Shown here piece by piece: positions 7,000 through 24,927 of a DNA stretch of 64,000 nucleotides (positions are counted from its first letter, which is position 1; each line of letters opens with the position of its first letter). Location of the stretch: the NCBI GenBank assembly GCA_947588355.1, contig CANPYI010000007.1, positions 601 through 64,600 of the forward strand, read 5' to 3'. Origin of the DNA: an uncultured Clostridia bacterium. Lineage in GTDB: Bacteria > Bacillota > Clostridia > Christensenellales > UBA1242. The position numbers and the translations under genes were made by a program. Under the pieces are notes generated by a model. That model did not search any database. It was not told where the DNA came from and saw nothing but the letters and a program-made list of their open reading frames with translations.

Positions 7000-7261
7000 A
7001 CCTACCGTTCTTTAAATCGCACAAATCGGCAAGTTCAAGTTCGTGAAGTTCCTTTTGCAAGGTTCTATCCAAAAGAAAATCAAAATCCTGGACGTCAATT
7101 TGTGAATAAATTTCCGAAAGAGACTTCTGTCTCATTCTCATATTATGCTCGTCTTTTGAAATTGTTGAAAAGGCGGCAAAGTCTTGAAGACTGCCAAAAA
7201 TTCTTTCGATTTTTTCTGCTTTTTCAACAAGTTTTCTGTATGCTTCTTGCATAATTTTCAC
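6980..7261 (-). CDS. Putative cognate antitoxin (no recognisable family)
   Basis: 93 aa ORF overlapping the mazF start by 20 nt; acidic C-terminal half; no obvious ribbon-helix-helix N-terminus; start is GTG 7261 or ATG 7252. Confidence 0.55.
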
Positions 7262-7280
7262 CCGTATTCCAAGATTTTAA

Positions 7281-7297
7281 ACTTATTTTAAATAAGT
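7281..7297. promoter_or_regulatory. Perfect palindrome upstream of the toxin-antitoxin pair (candidate operator)
   Basis: ACTTATTT-T-AAATAAGT, 8-bp arms, about 20 nt upstream of the antitoxin start. Confidence 0.4.
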
Positions 7298-7328
7298 ATA
7301 AAAAATTTATTCATTTGTAAAAAATTTT

Positions 7329-10027: not shown

Positions 10028-10705
10028 ATGGAAGAATTTAATTGCGTAAAAAATATGCCCGGATATGGTCCATCTCCAATTCCACAAGAAGGACATTGGG
10101 ACCAAACCAAAGAAATAACACAAATTTCTGGCTTTTCGCATGGATGCGGAATGTGTGCTCCTCAACAAGGCGCTTGCAAACTGACCTTAAATGTGAAAAA
10201 TGGAATTATCAAAGAGGCACTTGTGGAAACTATTGGCTGCTCTGGAATGACTCATTCCGCAGCAATGGCGGGTGAAATTTTGATTGGAAAAACCCTTTTG
10301 GAGGCATTAAACACCGACCTTGTGTGCGATGCCATAAACGATGCCATGAAAAACATCTTTCTGCAACTTGTGTATGGCAGAAGTCAGTCAGCATTCTCTC
10401 TTGGCGGACTTCCTGTAGGCACAAGTTTGGAGGATTTAGGAAAATACAAAACAAGTCAAGTTGGCACAATTGTTTCAACCGACAAAGGCGGTGTAAAATA
10501 TCTCAACTTGGCAGAGGGCTACATCACAAAAATGGCTCTTGACAAAAATGGCGAAACGATAGGCTATGAATATGTCAACCTTGGACTTTTGCTGAAAAAT
10601 TTGCAAGACGAAAAACTTTCAAAAGCGAAAGCAATTGAAAAATCGACAAAGCGATATGGTCGTTTTGACGAAGCAGTGAAAGTTGTAAATCCACGGGAGG
10701 TGTAA
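10028..10705 (+). CDS. NifU/IscU-like scaffold-domain protein, partner of the GGGtGRT gene
   Basis: 225 aa; GCGMC...LNVKNGIIKEALVETIGCSGMTHSAAMAGE...GKTLLEAL resembles the IscU/NifU N-terminal domain; strong RBS. Confidence 0.6.
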   Translation: MEEFNCVKNMPGYGPSPIPQEGHWDQTKEITQISGFSHGCGMCAPQQGACKLTLNVKNGIIKEALVETIGCSGMTHSAAMAGEILIGKTLLEALNTDLVCDAINDAMKNIFLQLVYGRSQSAFSLGGLPVGTSLEDLGKYKTSQVGTIVSTDKGGVKYLNLAEGYITKMALDKNGETIGYEYVNLGLLLKNLQDEKLSKAKAIEKSTKRYGRFDEAVKVVNPREV

Positions 10706-10707
10706 TC

Positions 10708-11694
10708 ATGGATGAACTTAAAAAATACGAATATTTGCCAAAAAAGTTGAAAGAATATGGCTTCAAAAACATTGATGAAGCAAAAGAATTTTGCCTAAAA
10801 GCAGGCATTGATGTAGAAAAAACAGTGCGTGAAATCCAACCAATATGCTTTGACAACGCAGTTTGGGCATACACCCTTGGCACAGCGATTGCATTGAAAA
10901 GCAACTGTAAAAATGCCAGCGAATATGCCGAAAAGATTGGTGAAGGTTTGCAGGCATTTTGCGTGAAAGGCTCGGTGGCTGACGAACGTCAAATCGGGCT
11001 TGGACATGGCAGACTTGCCGGCAGGCTTTTGGACGAAAACACAAAATGTTTTTGTTTTTTGGCAGGACACGAAAGTTTTGCGGCTGCAGAAGGTGCTATG
11101 GGAATAGCAAAAACAGCAAACAAAATCAGAAAAACACCCCTCAAAATCATTTTAAACGGGCTTGGCAAAGATGCTGCCTACATCATCGCTCGCGTGAATG
11201 GTTTCACTTATGTCAACACACAATTTGACCATAAAGAACAAAAACTGAAAATTTTGCAAGAAATCCCATTTTCAAAGGGCGAACGCGGAAATGTGAAGAT
11301 TTATGGCGCTTATGACGTTTCGGAAGGCGTTGCAATTATGCAGCACGAAGGCGTTGACGTGTCAATCACAGGAAATTCCACAAATCCAACGCGTTTCCAA
11401 CACCCTGTTGCCGGAACTTACAAAAAATGGTGCTATGAGAATGGCAAAAAATACTTTTCAGTTGCCTCTGGTGGTGGAACAGGCAGAACGTTGCACCCAG
11501 ACAACATGCATGCCGGTCCAGCAAGTTATGGCATGACAGACACAATGGGCAGAATGCATTGTGACGCACAATTTGCCGGTTCATCTTCCGTTCCCGCCCA
11601 TGTTGCGATGATGGGCTTTATTGGTATGGGAAACAATCCAATGGTTGGTGCAACGGTGAGTTTGGCCGTTGCAGTTGCCATGGCAAAAAAATAA
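10708..11694 (+). CDS. GGGtGRT family protein (function unknown)
   Basis: 328 aa containing the family-defining SGGGTGRTLHPDN motif; translationally coupled to the upstream NifU-like gene. Confidence 0.8.
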   Translation: MDELKKYEYLPKKLKEYGFKNIDEAKEFCLKAGIDVEKTVREIQPICFDNAVWAYTLGTAIALKSNCKNASEYAEKIGEGLQAFCVKGSVADERQIGLGHGRLAGRLLDENTKCFCFLAGHESFAAAEGAMGIAKTANKIRKTPLKIILNGLGKDAAYIIARVNGFTYVNTQFDHKEQKLKILQEIPFSKGERGNVKIYGAYDVSEGVAIMQHEGVDVSITGNSTNPTRFQHPVAGTYKKWCYENGKKYFSVASGGGTGRTLHPDNMHAGPASYGMTDTMGRMHCDAQFAGSSSVPAHVAMMGFIGMGNNPMVGATVSLAVAVAMAKK

Positions 11695-11893
11695 AGCCCA
11701 TATGGCCGAGTGAAACGAGGACATATGACAAACATTTGGTATGGGGAACAATCCAATGGTTGGTGCAACAGTAAGCCTTGCGGTCGCAGTGAGTTTGGCG
11801 AAAAAGTGAATAAAGCCCATATGGCCGAAACGAAGTGAGAAACAATCTTGCAACGGTTTCACTTGCCGTTGCGGTTGCTATGGCAAAAAGTGA
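11623..11893 (+). repeat. Three tandem copies of the 3'-terminal coding segment of the GGGtGRT gene (in-gene copy plus two orphan copies)
   Basis: Units start at 11623, 11738 and about 11837. Each encodes (GMGNNPMVG)ATVSLAVAV(A/S)(M/L)AKK; the first two are followed by stop + AAGCCCATATGGCCGA, while copy 3 lacks that 16-mer and has lost its stop through a 1-nt A-run deletion. Confidence 0.9.
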
Positions 11894-11912
11894 ACGAAAT
11901 TTGACTTATAAA

Positions 11913-11946
11913 ACAAAAAAAAAGCGAGATTTTCGCTCCTTTTTTA
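11913..11946. terminator. Bidirectional terminator between the GGGtGRT locus and the thyX-like gene
   Basis: AGCGA-gattt-TCGCT hairpin flanked by A9 and T-runs. Confidence 0.55.
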
Positions 11947-13062
11947 TATCAATCTTTCACCGGTCACGCCCTCTTTAAAACCGCATGGATGCTCGCATTT
12001 GTAGTCTGGAAATGTGCAACGTGACCCATGTGTGTAAGGCTCCAATTCCTTTGCTGCAGGATGATTTTGTGCCTTCAAGGCTTCAAGCATTTTCTTTTCA
12101 GTGGCAACCGTTTGTCTGTTTATTTCAAGTTGAGCCATAGTGCATTTTCTTTCTTTTGTCTTTAAGATAAAGTTTTCAAGTGTGCCGCGCTCGTTTATCT
12201 TGACAAGCATTCCTTGTGGAAAATTGTCCGCAAGTTTTTCGCAGTCGCTCTTCCATTCCTTAACCAAATTTGGATATTTTTCAAGGATTGGTGGCACAAA
12301 AAATTGAGGTTTTTCAAGCATTTCCATTGAATAATCTATGGTCCTGTGGCGGTGTGCTTGTGCAAGCTCGGCAAATGAACCCAAATAAGATGTGCAATAT
12401 GTATCTCCAAATTGTTCAATCATAGGTCTGCCGCGATGAATGAGTGACAAATTTCTGTTTTTTCTGTTGTCGGCAAGTTCTGTGTCGTAATAGCCAAGTT
12501 TTTTGAGATCTGCATTAAGTTCTTGCAAATTTTCCGCCAATTTAAGTGCAAATGGCGTGTTTTCGCTTCTCAAAACACTCACTTCTTTGTCCAAAAGTCC
12601 ATGCAAAACATTAAGTTGTCCGTATGGCAAGGAATATATCATTGAAGTTGGTGTGAAAACAGAGGTCAAATATCTGGCATTTTCTTGAGCCAATTTTGTG
12701 ATTTTGACATCATTGAAAAATTCTGGACATTTGTCCTTATATTCTTTTTCAATAAGGTCTTTAAAAATTTCCAACCATTTGTCATAATAAACTTGCTCGT
12801 TTTCCGGCAATGCCATACGTTTGTATCTTGCAGATTTTTCGCTTGTGGTGTAAAATTTTTCATTATTGAGCGCCATTGCCACAATTTTTGGAATGTTGTC
12901 AAGTTGTATTGTCAACTGCGGATGGCCAAATGGACTGTGATGCCCGCTTTGCTTGATGCTGCCCTCACGACGAATAGTCTTTTCTTCTGGCTCATCAAAA
13001 AGGGTTTCTATCGTGTCTGGCAAATAGCAAACACCAGCAGTAAGCCCTCCTATTTTGTCCAT
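11944..13062 (-). CDS. ThyX-like flavin-dependent thymidylate synthase family protein (long, rearranged form; 5' end probably extends to 13120 across a frameshift)
   Basis: SGHHSPFGHP, SEKSARY, AHRHRTIDYS and AQLEI resemble ThyX motifs in unusual order; a strong RBS+ATG at 13120 lies out of frame by 1 nt. Confidence 0.55.
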   Translation of the reverse strand: MDKIGGLTAGVCYLPDTIETLFDEPEEKTIRREGSIKQSGHHSPFGHPQLTIQLDNIPKIVAMALNNEKFYTTSEKSARYKRMALPENEQVYYDKWLEIFKDLIEKEYKDKCPEFFNDVKITKLAQENARYLTSVFTPTSMIYSLPYGQLNVLHGLLDKEVSVLRSENTPFALKLAENLQELNADLKKLGYYDTELADNRKNRNLSLIHRGRPMIEQFGDTYCTSYLGSFAELAQAHRHRTIDYSMEMLEKPQFFVPPILEKYPNLVKEWKSDCEKLADNFPQGMLVKINERGTLENFILKTKERKCTMAQLEINRQTVATEKKMLEALKAQNHPAAKELEPYTHGSRCTFPDYKCEHPCGFKEGVTGERLI

Positions 13063-13261
13063 TTCTTGCTTAGGTGCAACATATCCTAATTTTGAAGATG
13101 CAACTATTTTTTGCTTCCATAAAATTCTCCTTTCTGGAAAATTGTATCATAATCATTACCAAAAAGTCAACGCCAAATTTTATGTTTTTGTACGATTATT
13201 TTTTTTATTTTTGCACACAATAAAATAAGAAAGTGGGCACACTTTCAAAAAGGAGGAAAAA

Positions 13262-21625: not shown

Positions 21626-22315
21626 TTAAGCAAACCGATAAAATTGCAATATGCCACAAAACAGATGATAGCAAAACTTGTGCATGTATTCTCTGTTTTG
21701 CAAAAGCAGTTCTTCATTTGGATTGGACAAAAAACCGCACTCCACCAAAATGCTAGGACACGGCGAAACGTTCAATACATAAAAATCGCCGACCTTGGAA
21801 GTGAGTTTGGCGTTATCAAAATTGTCATGCAAATTTTTTGAAACACTGTCGGCAAGCGCCTGACCACTTTCACTTCCGTCAGCATAATAAACCTGCGCAC
21901 CGCACGCCTCTGACGACGGAAAACTGTTCATGTGAATGCTGACAACAATATCTGGATTGCTGTTTTCAATCACCTGCTTGCGTTTTTCCATCTCGCTTTT
22001 CTTTTTGTTTGGCGCAAGAGGGTCATACAGCCCCGCCATACTCTCCCTTGTCATCACAACTTCAAATCCATATTGCTCGCATATGCCCGCCAACGTTTTG
22101 GCATACTCCAAATTTAAGTAACTTTCAGTTGCCTCAGTCGTCTTTCCAACCGCCCCGCCGTCCTTTCCGCCGTGCCCAGCATCAATCACAATCACATGCT
22201 CCGGCTTTGGCATAAAGGTCGGCCGAATTGCCGTGAAATACACCACCACACTTGCCAAAACAAGCAAGAAACATAAAACAATCAAAATCCACTTTCGTTT
22301 TAAAGTTAAAAACAT
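21626..22315 (-). CDS. cwlD: N-acetylmuramoyl-L-alanine amidase, CwlD-like
   Basis: 229 aa; signal-anchor then VIDAGHGGKDGGAVG, SIHMNS and LVECGFLSN amidase_3 motifs. Confidence 0.85.
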   Translation of the reverse strand: MFLTLKRKWILIVLCFLLVLASVVVYFTAIRPTFMPKPEHVIVIDAGHGGKDGGAVGKTTEATESYLNLEYAKTLAGICEQYGFEVVMTRESMAGLYDPLAPNKKKSEMEKRKQVIENSNPDIVVSIHMNSFPSSEACGAQVYYADGSESGQALADSVSKNLHDNFDNAKLTSKVGDFYVLNVSPCPSILVECGFLSNPNEELLLQNREYMHKFCYHLFCGILQFYRFA

Positions 22316-22385
22316 ATGATATTTTATGAAAATCTCACAAATTTAAGAACAAAAAGGCATTTTTATCAAATTTTTTAAAAAAGGC

Positions 22386-22412
22386 TTGACAAACGCCCCC
22401 CCGTGTTAAAAT
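22386..22412 (+). promoter_or_regulatory. Promoter of the ankyrin cassette with a C7 tract in the spacer
   Basis: TTGACA(22386-91)-15 nt including C7 (22396-22402)-TGtTAAAAT extended -10. Confidence 0.6.
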
Positions 22413-22444
22413 GACCTTGTAAACAAAATTTTTTGGAGGTATAT

Positions 22445-23449
22445 ATGAAACAAGAATTGAAAGACAGCATTTATAATCTTTTCAAACAGGCACTCTCTTT
22501 GGGAGAATTTGAACAAGCAGAGCAAATCTTAAAATCGCTTAATATAGATGATGCCATGTTAAACGCTGCAGTAGACGATCAACTGGATTTCGAATCTCCC
22601 GACATTAAAAGCATAAAATGGTTGCTTGCACACGGCGGAAACTTCAAAGATGACGCTTTATTTAAAATCGTGAGAAAAGACAGTAAAGAATTGATTGACT
22701 TGGCTTTAAAACAAGGTGTCAACATAAATGCTCAAGATGAAAATGGTCGCACGCCCTTGTTCGTTGCTGCGCTGTTTGGAAAAGCCGATATTCTTGATCT
22801 GTTACTTAAAAATGGAGCAGATCCAAATGTTAGAGACAACAGTGGCCAAACCGCGATGTTTTCTTGCGCCGCCACTTATGTTGCTTACAGCACCGAACAC
22901 GTGAAAAAGATTAAACTGCTTGCCAAAAGTGGCGCAGATGTAAATGCCAAAGATAATCAAGGCAGAACTCCAATAATGTTTGCAGACAAACATGGAGTTG
23001 AAGCATTATCTTCATTGGGCGCCGATGTAAACGCCAAAGATAATGATGGCAAAACAGCATTGCTGCATATCTTATCCACCAACGTAACCACTTCTACCAG
23101 GCAAATATTCGTGAAAGATTTCTCAGAAATAGTTCCCGCTGCAAAGATGTTGATAAAAAATGGCGCAGATGTCTTTGCAACAATAGATTGTGTGGACGAA
23201 CAAAATATCCTCTTCCAAAGAAACTTGTTTGATATTGCCAAAGACAATCATAATTTGGACGTCTTAGAAGAGATAGTTGGAAAAAATTTATATAAAAAGT
23301 TGTTTGAAGCAAGCAACCGCTTAAAATATGCTCATCAAACAGCAGAGTCTCCAACATCAAAGCTTAGTGCTACTGGAGAAAGATGTCTTGCTGTCTGCCA
23401 AGACCCGCCATCTGAACATAAAATTCAAAACAAAGATAAAACAAAATAA
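22445..23449 (+). CDS. Ankyrin-repeat protein
   Basis: At least 5 ANK repeats (GRTPLFVAALFGKADILDLLLKNGADPN, NQGRTPIMFA, GADVNAKDNDGKTALLH); ATG 22445 behind GGAGG. Confidence 0.85.
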   Translation: MKQELKDSIYNLFKQALSLGEFEQAEQILKSLNIDDAMLNAAVDDQLDFESPDIKSIKWLLAHGGNFKDDALFKIVRKDSKELIDLALKQGVNINAQDENGRTPLFVAALFGKADILDLLLKNGADPNVRDNSGQTAMFSCAATYVAYSTEHVKKIKLLAKSGADVNAKDNQGRTPIMFADKHGVEALSSLGADVNAKDNDGKTALLHILSTNVTTSTRQIFVKDFSEIVPAAKMLIKNGADVFATIDCVDEQNILFQRNLFDIAKDNHNLDVLEEIVGKNLYKKLFEASNRLKYAHQTAESPTSKLSATGERCLAVCQDPPSEHKIQNKDKTK

Positions 23450-23455
23450 AATTTT

Positions 23456-23483
23456 AAAAGCATATCACCCCGATATGCTTTTT
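23456..23483. terminator. Shared hairpin terminator, copy T2
   Basis: GCATATC-ACCCC-GATATGC + T5. Confidence 0.8.
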
Positions 23484-23500
23484 AATTGCTTTTAATTTCT

Positions 23501-23692
23501 CTACAGTCCTAACTTGACATCCAACCCGCCGTGGCCGGCATCAATAACAATCACCTTTTGCGTGTTTGGACGAAATGTCGGCTTTATGGCAGTGAAATAA
23601 ACAACGGCTGTTGCAATCGCAAGCAAAAAACAAGTCGCCAAAACAAAATATTCCTTTTTCAAAACAAAAAATCTGTGTTTTTTAGAAAACAT
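23501..23692 (-). pseudogene. Truncated 5' fragment of cwlD (copy B)
   Basis: 63 codons; ...VVYFTAIKPTFRPNTQKVIVIDAGHGG then LDVKLGL-stop; matches the cwlD N-terminus and breaks at the same point as copy C. Confidence 0.85.
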
Positions 23693-23745
23693 AAGATATT
23701 TTATTTTTCAAACATTTCACTTATAACAAAAATTTGGCACAAATG

Positions 23746-23775
23746 ATTGAAGCCCTAAATTTTTGATGATACAAT
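23746..23775 (+). promoter_or_regulatory. Promoter of the MuF-motif/DUF4926-like cassette
   Basis: TTGAAG-18 nt-TGaTACAAT extended -10. Confidence 0.5.
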
Positions 23776-23804
23776 CACCGAAAATATTATCAAAGGAGAA
23801 CATT

Positions 23805-24376
23805 ATGAATATTTTTGATTGGTTGTTTAATTGGGTCAAAAAATAATTGGTGGCTTTGGTGGGGATTTTATTCAAAAAATAAGTTTAAGCAGTTTGGATT
23901 TGGAAAAATGTAATGGAGAAGCAATATCTGATGAATTAACTAACACTTGTGAAATATGTGTCGCTTTAAACAAAACTGTTTTCAAAAGTAATAATAGTCC
24001 AACATACACACATCCCCATTGCAAATGCATTCAAATTCCAACAACTTTATCATCGCCTTCGCTCATATTTGATATGAGGAAAATAACAGATTATCTTTTT
24101 ATTGACAAAAGCAAGTCAAGAATGATAAAATCAATGGGATTTTATCCAGAAGATGCACAATTCCTATATGATTATGTATCTTTAAATGTTACAAAAGAAT
24201 TTGTAAATGGCAACTACATATTAAAGAATTTAAATAAAAATGGTCAACATTTTCAAATTAATTATAATATTAATGGTAAACGAGACCATTCAAACGAGAC
24301 TTTTCAATGCTATGCGGGTTGTATTGCATATCCAAACGGAAAAATTAAAATTGCAACACCTTTAGTAAAAATATAG
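23805..24376 (+). CDS. MuF-type zinc-motif + DUF6883-like protein, interrupted by a -1 frameshift at A6 (23838-23843)
   Basis: ATG 23805 behind AAAGGAGA stops after 13 codons; one extra A would join it to the 23831..24376 frame; CEIC..x20..HPHCKC motif; KITDYLF...GFYPED... C-terminal domain. Confidence 0.6.
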
Positions 24377-24387
24377 GAGAGATGAAC

Positions 24388-24717
24388 ATGAAACTATACG
24401 ATGATGTCAGAGTCATAAATGACAAATATGAAAACATTGGCATAAAAAAGGGCAGCCATGGTGCAATTGTTTTGGCTGAAATCCGAGGACACAGTGTGGA
24501 AGTGGAATTTTTTGATCTTCCAAAAGATGTTTTTGCTCTGCAATGCATAGACATCGAAGATTTGGAAGTGACGCATGAATCTGCGGTAACAGATGAGCAT
24601 ATTTTGGACGAACTCCCCTCACATGACAAACGATGGTGGTGCAAAGTCGAAAATGGTTACATCGTAAATTTGCTTGGTGAAAAGAAAAACAAAATGCCAT
24701 ATGATTACAATTCATAA
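24388..24717 (+). CDS. DUF4926-like small protein (candidate antidote/immunity partner)
   Basis: MKLYDDVRVINDK...GSHGAIVLAEIRGHSVEVEFFD resembles DUF4926; its AGGAGA RBS overlaps the upstream stop codon. Confidence 0.6.
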   Translation: MKLYDDVRVINDKYENIGIKKGSHGAIVLAEIRGHSVEVEFFDLPKDVFALQCIDIEDLEVTHESAVTDEHILDELPSHDKRWWCKVENGYIVNLLGEKKNKMPYDYNS

Positions 24718-24746
24718 AAAAGCATATCCCATGATATGCTTTTTTT
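24716..24746. terminator. Shared hairpin terminator, copy T3
   Basis: GCATATC-CCAT-GATATGC + T7. Confidence 0.8.
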
Positions 24747-24927
24747 ATTTCCAATACAGCCCTAACTTGACATCCAACCCACCGTGCCCAGCATCAATCA
24801 CAATAACATGCTCCGCCTTTGGCATAAATGTCGGCCGAATCGCCGTGAAATACACCACCACGCTTGCCACAACAAGCAACACACATAAAACAATCAAAAT
24901 CCACTTTTTCTTTAAGGTCAAAAACAA
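24745..24927 (-). pseudogene. Truncated 5' fragment of cwlD (copy C)
   Basis: 60 codons; MFLTLKKKWILIVLCVLLVVASVVVYFTAIRPTFMPKAEHVIVIDAGHGG then LDVKLGLYWK-stop; start codon is TTG instead of ATG. Confidence 0.9.

Follow-up and report, generated by a model that had tools for sequence, protein, structure and literature searches.

The question raised by this locus is how a protein gene comes to be followed by two further versions of its own end. In a stretch of 64,000 nt from an uncultured Clostridia bacterium (the window), a gene of the GGGtGRT family is closed by its stop codon, and its last 23 codons then recur twice downstream. The most likely answer is a known process, integration with a replacement gene end, acting at a gene not reported for it before.

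The array behind the GGGtGRT gene

The GGGtGRT-family gene is located at 10708..11694 on the plus strand and codes for 328 aa. Its match to PF14057 (E 1.5e-181) spans profile positions 11-326 of 327, so the protein is full-length. GGGtGRT is a conserved protein of unknown function, recurrent in gut and rumen metaproteome studies; a look-up of the window's exact protein in public assemblies returned no record. The operon gene upstream (10028..10705, plus strand) has a weak match to the NifU N-terminal domain, below the cutoff (Pfam PF01592, E 3e-4, 21.3 bits against 22), and this gene precedes GGGtGRT in every related locus. Downstream, the genes vary among relatives. In the window this position is taken by a convergent thyX-like gene (11944..13062, minus strand; PF02511, E 6e-12), and elsewhere by different genes; with no PHROG match, it was rejected as a prophage remnant. 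An A-run, GC hairpin and T-run at 11915..11946 (no strand assigned), with a terminator-like site at 11923-11937 in a terminator scan, is likely the shared terminator of the GGGtGRT transcript and the thyX-like gene, and the two extra copies would lie in the 3' UTR of the former. They do not represent a known structured RNA, as Rfam gave no match with E below 0.26 over 11300-12100 and its weak matches sit on the terminator.

The 3' segment of 23 codons was recovered three times by sequence reading, by a repeat finder, by TRF (period 115, 1.8 copies, 79% match) and by tblastn with the C-terminal peptide, all on the plus strand and separated by spacers of 43 and 31 nt. Copy 1 (11623..11694), the gene-proximal of the three direct repeats, completes the 328-aa ORF and is the functional gene end, GMGNNPMVGATVSLAVAVAMAKK plus stop. 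Copy 2 (11738..11809) is an intact orphan end in the +1 frame, GMGNNPMVGATVSLAVAVSLAKK plus stop, with a tblastn E of 2e-16 over 11738-11806. Copy 3 (about 11841..11888; tblastn E 3e-7 for 11850-11888) is truncated and decayed, and reads NN-LATVSLAVAVAMAK in the codon table. It has lost its 5' end and has a 9-nt gap, and its stop codon is absent because its tail is the tail of copy 2 minus one A. As small ORFs in their own right the orphans were rejected, since no consistent ribosome-binding site precedes their ATG and their frames vary among genomes.

Copy 1 is followed by the 20-mer AATAAAGCCCATATGGCCGA (11690..11709, direct repeat D4), 100% identical to 11809-11828 after copy 2. It contains the stop codon, the 3' arm of a long-range inverted repeat and the left arm of a spacer hairpin. 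The first-pass annotation had described this shared stretch as a 16-mer; the 16-mer is present, and only at these two places in the window, but the identity extends to 20 nt. The second 20-mer continues into AACGAAGTGAG (11809..11840, by reading and repeat finder), where the hairpin has its left arm and loop but no right arm, and copy 3 lacks its start; this segment is homologous to the post-stop sequence of L004, a single-copy relative. Directly 5' of copy 2 is the junction CAAACATTT (11729..11737), where relatives carry (A)AACCATT; if the copies are att sites, this would be the P-arm side.

Between copies 1 and 2 there are 15 nt differences in 12 codons, 10 synonymous and two non-synonymous. 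The latter exchange A-M of copy 1 for S-L in copy 2, and S-L is the in-gene allele in many relatives. None of 3000 random-substitution simulations gave two or fewer amino-acid changes (P<1/3000). Copy 3 differs from copy 1 in five codons, all synonymous, including AGT/TCA. When 14 within-genome copy pairs were pooled, 69 synonymous codon differences were counted against eight non-synonymous. These copies and their statistics are observed directly, and the earlier description of two repeats past the stop, of ten silent changes in 12 codons, and of the gap, silent codons and lost A of copy 3 is borne out in each particular.

Third-position identity between species is already about 0.6, and for this reason, together with the synonymous bias, copies so diverged cannot be old non-coding relics. 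The synonymous divergence of copies 1 and 2 is at the level of orthologues from different species and both encode known functional alleles, which agrees with the earlier argument that they are not local duplicates in decay. Comparison of gene end with gene body is uninformative on end replacement, since synonymous change between species is almost saturated. The first 32 nt of copies 1 and 2, noted before as nearly identical, differ in one base only; as a crossover core they are a plausible candidate.

Recurrence in related genomes

A comparison with relatives, which had been proposed earlier as a check, revealed two to three copies in each of about a dozen related uncultured Clostridia from independent assemblies, among them L002, L003, L005, L006, L007, L010, L011, L013, L015, and L029. 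The architecture is identical in four samples of one species (L268-L271), and one array is common to L013 and L234, two samples of another species. That such arrays recur across species and samples is a direct observation. P0020 and P0033 are single-copy in all places listed and therefore uninformative.

Strain haplotypes of one gene end laid in tandem by the assembler are a very improbable source of the array. The relatives are metagenome-assembled genomes and the copies differ as alleles would. The longest exact repeats between array units are, however, 23 and 20 nt, which we infer to be shorter than usual final assembly k-mers, and the junction sequence GAGTGAAACGAGGACATATGACAAACATTT must be present in reads. 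The same architecture was found in contigs of many studies, both of SPAdes style (NODE_) and of MEGAHIT style (k127_, k141_), as well as in the replicate samples above, and the assembly-collapse alternative of the first-pass annotation is therefore rejected.

Even less probable is its other alternative, a functional reserve of silent C-terminal cassettes for protein variation, or a template/variable pair like that of a diversity-generating retroelement (DGR). Silent copies behind a gene, each followed by a hairpin, superficially resemble pilin-type cassettes or a DGR VR/TR pair, but the peptides of all intact copies are identical or almost so, and no diversity would be gained. Mismatches are not restricted to adenines in either direction, and the frame of the orphans relative to the gene differs between genomes, with no consistent ribosome-binding site in front of them; on the near-identical peptides and varying frames the reserve was discarded. 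A DGR proper was rejected too, because the 15 differences span all four bases in both directions and synonymous change is the opposite of DGR output; no reverse transcriptase was found among the neighbouring genes scanned.

In the window, L002, and L011 it is the distal copies that are damaged. Decay is mostly greater farther from the gene, the pattern predicted by addition of new ends beside it. In several genomes the orphan shares 92-98% identity with the in-gene copy of the same genome and less with any other species, which indicates concerted evolution; many arrays look homogenised by gene conversion. Between L013 and L234, which diverge by 1.3% overall, the differences are concentrated in two places, the copy 1 core and copy 2 (three synonymous, one towards consensus), with none in the 80-nt spacer. 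The arrays are partly vertically inherited and homogenised within genomes.

The gene end as an attachment site

At least 120 viral contigs match the core. Among 69 distinct contexts, at least 47 lack the gene upstream and carry the 3' fragment only. In 41 of these the similarity sets in 0-4 codons ahead of the M of MGNN, or 0-12 nt before ATGGG, approximately where the copies of the window begin. A tyrosine integrase lies within about 300 nt of the fragment in the contigs examined; all six neighbouring ORFs sampled are tyrosine integrases (PF00589), five of which also match arm-binding domains. L139 has two tandem elements, each bounded by a copy, and the copies are 6 kb apart in L198 and 12 kb apart in L137. 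The GGGtGRT gene end is a real phage attachment site (attB) in other host clades, where use of the exact site and boundary is directly observed.

With three sequence patterns, no viral contig was found to carry the gene-end version of the present clade or a ACCATTGG-type junction, and one metagenome scan returned only the same miniature arrays and no element. With four integrases as tblastn queries, no homologue was found in the 64-kb window, nor in 80 related genomes at up to 6 kb from the gene. The 16-mer, which was to be sought elsewhere, has 15 matches in viral contigs, all in unrelated contexts and, by a rough estimate, at about chance level. The earlier proposal that integrative elements target this 3' end and carry a surrogate end is therefore largely supported, by tyrosine-integrase phages of other clades that use the exact gene end, but no such element was found for this clade; likewise, the search for an island or prophage between copies succeeded in L139, L198, and L137 and yielded only miniature arrays here. 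The added statement that the elements have since been lost does not account for the spacers. Random prophage decay should leave remnants of many sizes, and none of kb scale was seen between copies, where in about a dozen species a single conserved hairpin family of 30-90 nt is found instead.

Copies 2 and 3 have, in our estimate, about an even chance of being displaced former GGGtGRT ends, attR-type relics of site-specific integration. The attachment site would lie within the last 70 nt or so of the gene, and tyrosine-integrase elements (temperate phages, small islands) would recombine within ...ATTGGN-ATGGGNAAY-AAYCCAATGGTT... Such an element would bring its own version of the remaining 20-odd codons, by which the gene would stay intact, and would push the previous end downstream. 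Repeated integration would stack the old ends with the newest adjoining the gene. Until displaced, each end would have served and evolved as the end of a functional gene, in a host or an element, which would explain why the copies differ almost only at synonymous sites. Unequal crossing-over, gene conversion between copies and small deletions may have reshaped the array later. We infer the integrative origin of this clade's arrays, the crossover position and the order of events from the comparisons given here.

One of the closest known systems is icd of Escherichia coli, into whose 3' end e14 and phage 21 integrate. There the crossover by a lambdoid-type tyrosine integrase falls within the 3' end of a protein gene, the alternative end of the element differs mostly synonymously, and the original end persists at the far junction as an orphan fragment. 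At icd, however, a prophage of many kb separates the ends and there is one orphan, whereas the GGGtGRT array has two orphans, spacers of 31-43 nt and no element. The known examples of cis-mobilizable elements (CIMEs) are several kb long and still carry genes; in the GGGtGRT arrays, by contrast, the 'element' is a hairpin of 30-90 nt and the arrays are conserved across the whole clade. Both tandem accretion and CIMEs are established for streptococci, at the 3' ends of genes that include fda and tRNA-Lys, where successive integrations at one gene end lead to arrays of att repeats and decayed elements keep attL and attR and lose the integrase (PMC5704250). In the ssrA islands of Dehalococcoides, over a dozen direct repeats of the gene 3' end are stacked downstream and mark tandem islands, with a conserved motif directly upstream of each repeat (PMC3146451). 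The stacking of 3'-end repeats downstream of one gene is alike, but the Dehalococcoides islands target an RNA gene, have a 20-bp repeat and a CcrB-like integrase of the serine type, and are themselves kb-sized, integration modules included.

No paper in the literature searched ties the GGGtGRT gene to integration. In gut anaerobes, phages and islands make wide use of its 3' end as an attachment site; this end can serve as a landmark for prophage boundaries in metagenomes, and its use explains the frequent contig breaks there.

Spacer hairpins and inverted repeats

The first spacer of the window folds as DNA into the hairpin CCATATGGCC - GAGTGAAACGA - GGACATATGA (11698..11728, plus strand), and a homologous hairpin is present in relatives, with compensatory changes at four of eight consensus pairs. 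Spacers always belong to the one conserved family, which roughly tracks the host and gene tree. Between L007 and L029 they are 90% identical, and the third positions of the gene 62%. This pattern points to old vertical inheritance and constraint, not to repeated recent insertions. No plus-strand terminator was called in the spacer by a simple terminator scan. On the minus strand the hairpin is followed by a T-run as judged by eye, which the scan did not support.

A second feature, absent from the first-pass annotation, is long-range complementarity. The in-gene arm ATGGGCTTTATT (11611..11622, plus strand, codons M-G-F-I; inverted repeats I3 and I4) is perfectly complementary to the 12 nt over each stop codon, AATAAAGCCCAT at 11690-11701 and 11809-11820. 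Array-bearing relatives have complements of 8-12 nt with species-specific compensating codons, and most array-less relatives 4-6 nt. The putative recombination core of copy 1 (11616..11646, plus strand) consists of CTTTATTGGTAT as presumed left half-site, the overlap GGGAAAC and AATCCAATGGTT as presumed right half-site, with an ATTGG / CCAAT dyad visible. The left half in the orphans of L005, L006, L010, and L015 is a perfect inverted repeat, 8-10 nt long, of CCAATGGTT. Putative half-sites of the form AACCATTGGA-N11-TCCAATGGTT are perfect in L010 and extend over 8-9 nt in L005, L006, and L015 but over only 4-5 nt in the window. The registers of the inverted repeats differ in L013 (GCCAACC/GGTTGGC) and L268 (CCCACCA/TGGTGGG). 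In 45 phage attP regions of other clades the fragment flanks have no systematic mutual complementarity, and flank complementarity was rejected as a general property of attP.

An origin with no mobile element, rather unlikely in our view, would start from the quasi-palindromic gene end itself (ATTGG...CCAAT, GCAACGG...CCGTTGC) and its hairpin. Template switching or unequal exchange would have duplicated gene end plus hairpin once in the ancestor of the clade. The array would then have been inherited, and gene conversion together with rotation of copies into the gene would have maintained the similarity of its copies. Divergence would arise where one copy was overwritten by homologous recombination with DNA of another strain or species, and the covariation of inverted repeats would stem from templated correction of the quasi-palindrome. 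Consistent with this are the single homologous spacer family that roughly follows the host tree, the array constant in every assembly found for two species, and the failure to find an integrase or element for the clade. The orphans of L007 and L029 are each 98% identical to their own in-gene copy and differ from one another only synonymously. Identical 3' halves and hairpins beside decayed 5' halves in L003 fit unequal crossing-over, and L006 has a secondary duplication of about 244 nt. The upstream inverted repeats in their varied registers track orphan-specific codons, which templated copying fits better than protein-binding sites do.

Against such an origin, the 5' boundary of the copies is within a few nt of the boundary of the phage fragments, which would be rare for a random start unless the palindrome sets both. 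With drift in place about one third of codon differences should be non-synonymous; for the four most divergent arrays this is a rough expectation of about 14, and four were observed. Foreign functional alleles would still have to be imported into a patch of about 40 nt, and the persistence of identical tandem repeats against deletion is left without a reason. Displaced ends of former integrations remain the preferred reading. In the miniature arrays, nature has recorded in compact form how gene ends are replaced, how copies evolve in concert and how hairpins covary.

Two further classes of element were compared. Integron cassette arrays with their attC hairpins are alike in proximal growth and in imperfect inter-unit hairpins conserved in structure and not in sequence. 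The GGGtGRT array has, however, no intI and no RYYYAAC/GTTRRRY boxes, and its units are fragments of one gene, not independent ORFs. Integron cassettes were rejected on the lack of attC boxes at the hairpin bases (GTTGGTG, which comes nearest, does not fit the consensus) and of an integrase. A dispersed repeat (REP, MITE, PATE) was rejected as well, because in the window the 16-mer occurs at its two array sites only and the hairpin loop motif at chance frequency.

It is improbable that the unit of 105-160 nt, surrogate end plus hairpin, is a miniature non-autonomous integrative cassette spreading within the clade, inserted by an integrase acting in trans or via a folded single-strand intermediate. 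It is implausible that an integrase would act on a double-stranded circle of about 115 bp, and one array period folded as a circle gave only moderate z-scores of -1.4 to -4.0. Between L007 and L029 the coding part that adjoins the conserved spacer has diverged to the same degree as the remaining gene, so spacer and gene end did not arrive together recently. Presence/absence polymorphism within species was not seen, and the unit occurs nowhere else in the window. In its favour, the spacers retain only the conserved, covarying hairpin and junction sequence, the post-stop sequence fits the codons that the host itself carries 5' of the target, and the newest copy adjoins the gene. If the spacers prove functional or mobile, the lower size limit of integrative elements will be extended.

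The parallel drawn earlier with a second pile-up in the same window, at the 5' end of cwlD, is real. There, 1.3-kb cargo cassettes share a foreign junction and are integrase-less, each with a promoter, a surrogate 5' end and one cargo gene. This pile-up speaks for the integrative origin of the GGGtGRT array as well as for the miniature cassette. It is conceivable, at a similarly low probability, that the gene-free unit of 105-160 nt is the smallest kind of integrative cassette, placed beside a conserved coding motif, and that the cwlD cassettes are larger representatives of one common cassette traffic. In L002 the two systems lie directly next to each other.

Gene-end copies in the window and in related genomes

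The window is chromosomal DNA from a spore-former of low GC content, and its genes include tyrS, recX, spoIIE, and cwlD; judged by a run of short minus-strand ORFs, it looks like it also holds a candidate ribosomal-protein operon. The full-length GGGtGRT protein is encoded at 10708-11694 (PF14057, E 1.5e-181). Its last 23 codons (copy 1, in the gene at 11623-11694) are repeated as copy 2 (11738-11809; tblastn with the peptide, E 2e-16) and, truncated, as copy 3 (about 11841-11888; E 3e-7). The copies, which start with TTGGTATGGG, were found by direct reading, a repeat finder, TRF (period 115, match 79%), and tblastn with the peptide. The first-pass annotation had described them accurately, but it missed that the 12 nt preceding the repeated segment are the perfect complement of 12 nt across each stop codon. 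This was revealed by the repeat finder, as was an identical 20-mer directly 3' of both intact copies. Between copies 1 and 2 there are 15 nt differences spread over 12 codons. Ten of these codons still encode the same residue, and the remaining two (AM vs. SL) correspond to the in-gene allele of many relatives. In 3000 simulations of random substitution, the peptide was never conserved this well. Copy 3 lacks a stop codon, contains a 9-nt gap, and differs synonymously at five codons, AGT/TCA among them.

A scan of one genome per species recognized 80 related loci. Their sources are without exception uncultured Clostridia from human and animal guts, and a few records bear the label Christensenella or Catabacter. 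Two or three copies are present in ten of them (L002, L003, L005, L006, L007, L010, L011, L013, L015, and L029), and the remaining loci have a single copy. Collapse of strain variants during assembly, an alternative offered in the first-pass annotation, was rejected: the array-bearing contigs come from various studies and assemblers, the two-copy array of one further species is identical in four separate samples (L268-L271), that of another is present in two (L013 and L234), and the window's units share exact repeats of at most 23 and 20 nt, which would be too short to mislead a modern assembler. Functional reserve C-terminal cassettes, also proposed there, were rejected.

Divergence of the copies and the attachment site

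Species of this clade are near saturation at synonymous sites, with third-position identity of about 0.6 even at 96% protein identity. Window copies 1 and 2 are as divergent as orthologues from different species, and both code for functional alleles; an equally old non-coding relic would be unrecognisable. Of the codon differences counted in 14 within-genome pairs, 69 are synonymous and eight non-synonymous. Drift in place should give about one third non-synonymous codon differences. By a rough hand estimate from counts, the four most divergent arrays have four against about 14 expected, and therefore one copy or both in each divergent pair evolved under selection on the protein, whether in another lineage or in an element. 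Divergence under such selection elsewhere had been claimed from the sequence alone and is borne out. Decay mostly grows with distance from the gene (window, L002, and L011), which is consistent with addition at the gene-proximal position; L006 is an exception, accounted for by its secondary duplication.

The best-supported reading, to which we give about even weight, is that the copies are att-type relics: integrative elements would target the GGGtGRT gene end and bring a surrogate end, and the arrays would then be reshaped via unequal crossing-over, gene conversion, and deletion. Integration of e14 at icd is a known case of such an event. The kind of event is already known, and GGGtGRT as the target gene is new; a literature search found no link of this gene to integration. 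Other known instances are CIMEs and accretion (PMC5704250) and the Dehalococcoides ssrA islands (PMC3146451).

Viral contigs were scanned with a degenerate pattern for ...MGNNPMVGAT..., and at least 120 matched. Among the matches listed there are 69 distinct contexts; the whole gene lies upstream in 22, which are host flank or attL, and a 3' fragment alone lies within phage DNA in 47. In 41 of these 47, similarity to the gene starts 0-4 codons ahead of the M of MGNN, only a few nt from the start of the window's copies. In the contigs examined, the fragment is typically downstream of a holin/endolysin-like module and is followed 3' by a terminator, short repeated motifs such as TTGTCCAC, and a tyrosine integrase ORF identified by Pfam (PF00589 in 6/6, arm-binding domains also in 5/6). 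Viral contig L139 carries two tandem integrase-bearing elements, each bounded by a gene-end copy, and such copies are spaced 6 kb apart in L198 and 12 kb in L137. Therefore, the GGGtGRT 3' end is a genuine, much-used attB, and the elements supply a surrogate end. The motif could mark prophage boundaries.

Many of the matches in viral loci L081-L200 are no more than about 100 nt from the end of the contig (e.g., L085, L131, L137, L139, L143, L146, and L153), as expected if assemblies break at sequence common to phage and host.

Spacers and inverted repeats

The integrative-element footprint seen by the first-pass annotation stood as to the gene end being the attB of elements with a surrogate end, but no element or integrase was found for the window's clade. 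Four integrases gave no tblastn homologue in the window or the 80 loci, three viral scans did not turn up the clade's own version of the end or junction, and a metagenome scan returned miniature arrays only. If prophages decayed at random, remnants of every size would be expected, but in the roughly 30 species examined none reached kb scale. All complete spacers are hairpins of 30-90 nt that belong to a single homologous family (CCA, one mismatch, stem, loop, then TATGG), with compensatory changes at four of eight consensus pairs, and the family roughly tracks the gene tree. Hairpin-only spacers are a peculiarity that the integration model leaves unexplained. In sister species L007 and L029 the spacers are 90% identical vs. 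62% for gene third positions, and the adjoining coding copies have diverged to the same extent as the gene body, which means that the spacer is under constraint and did not arrive recently. A genuinely miniature mobile cassette is weakly supported and quite improbable.

The main rival to the att-relic account is endogenous duplication at a palindromic hotspot, kept up by concerted evolution, with foreign alleles brought in from time to time by homologous recombination; we consider it rather unlikely. Several genomes have an orphan that shares 92-98% identity with the in-gene copy of the same genome and resembles any other species less closely; by sequence reading, the L007 and L029 orphans differ from each other purely synonymously. 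This pattern is concerted evolution, and L003 and L006 show clear unequal-crossover products. Complementary segments that covary with species-specific codons fall into three sets. In the first, in-gene ATGGGNTTYATH is complementary to post-stop sequence over 8-12 nt in array-bearing genomes, 8-9 nt in hairpin-remnant loci L004, L014, and L016, and 4-6 nt in most array-less genomes. The second comprises both arms of the spacer hairpin. In the third, found in about half of the arrays and in varying registers, sequence just 5' of the orphan complements its own CCAATGGTTGG. The segments could be recombinase half-sites, selected RNA/DNA structure, or neutral templated quasi-palindrome correction. 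In 45 phage attP regions from other clades, the fragment's flanks were not systematically complementary to each other.

Viewed on the minus strand, the spacers (window 11698-11728 and homologues in relatives) have a hairpin with a T-run immediately after it; the run is complementary to Lys-Lys-stop, AAAAAAATAAA. Judged from this arrangement, they could terminate antisense transcription entering from downstream; a simple consensus scan did not call them because the loop exceeds 8 nt. Past the second copy of L029 (7105-7260) there is an inverted motif pair, GTCATTCTGAACGAAACGAAGTGGAGTGAAGAATCTC ... GAGATCCTTCACTGCGTTCAGGATGAC, whose core GAACGAAGTGA resembles the spacer-hairpin loop motif GAAACGAAGTGA (window, L002, L004, and L014); both may belong to a wider repeat family.

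Rearrangements and the cwlD pile-up

The region just 3' of the GGGtGRT end (window 11895-13260 and the corresponding place in relatives) is a rearrangement hotspot. The gene that follows varies among close relatives: it is thyX-like in the window, L002, and probably L005; in L001 and L003 the sequence reads as a probable short-chain dehydrogenase; and others have galU-like NTP_transferase, YjzC, or Ser_hydrolase. The thyX-like protein (372 aa) had no PHROG match, and its Thy1 profile match is limited to the first 144 residues. In L268-L271 (the species of P0024), tyrS, a NifU-like gene, and GGGtGRT form a block whose orientation with respect to its flanks (YjzC at one end, Impact_N/RecX at the other) is the reverse of that in the window. 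One breakpoint coincides with the two-copy array; the gene after it begins 1 nt past the orphan's stop codon.

The first 52 codons of cwlD (21626-22315, minus strand; pile-up region 22076-24927) are present three times in the window, in the gene and as two orphans. Relative to the in-gene copy, codons of the orphan at 23674-23519 differ synonymously in 13 cases and non-synonymously in 22; for the orphan at 24927-24772 the counts are 10 and six, respectively. In both, the match ends directly after ...VIDAGHGG and is followed by a shared foreign tail, GTCAAGTTAGG(G/A)CTGTA, and a terminator hairpin. A single cargo ORF lies between each pair of copies: an ankyrin-repeat protein gene (22433-23449) and an ORF at 23831-24376. 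No integrase homologue was found in the window by tblastn, and the units appear to be integrase-less cassettes, each about 1.3 kb long, supplying a promoter together with a surrogate 5' end.

At 7225-7300 of related locus L002, the third GGGtGRT end copy, which is truncated, runs straight into a cwlD-type junction (...VIDAGHGGLD, GTCAAGTTAGGGCTGTAG, terminator), and therefore the two pile-up systems touch in a related genome. A 17-mer of this junction is absent from the other loci compared except viral contig L274, presumably a chance match. The fused junction is followed by a 191-aa ORF and then by a thyX-like gene.
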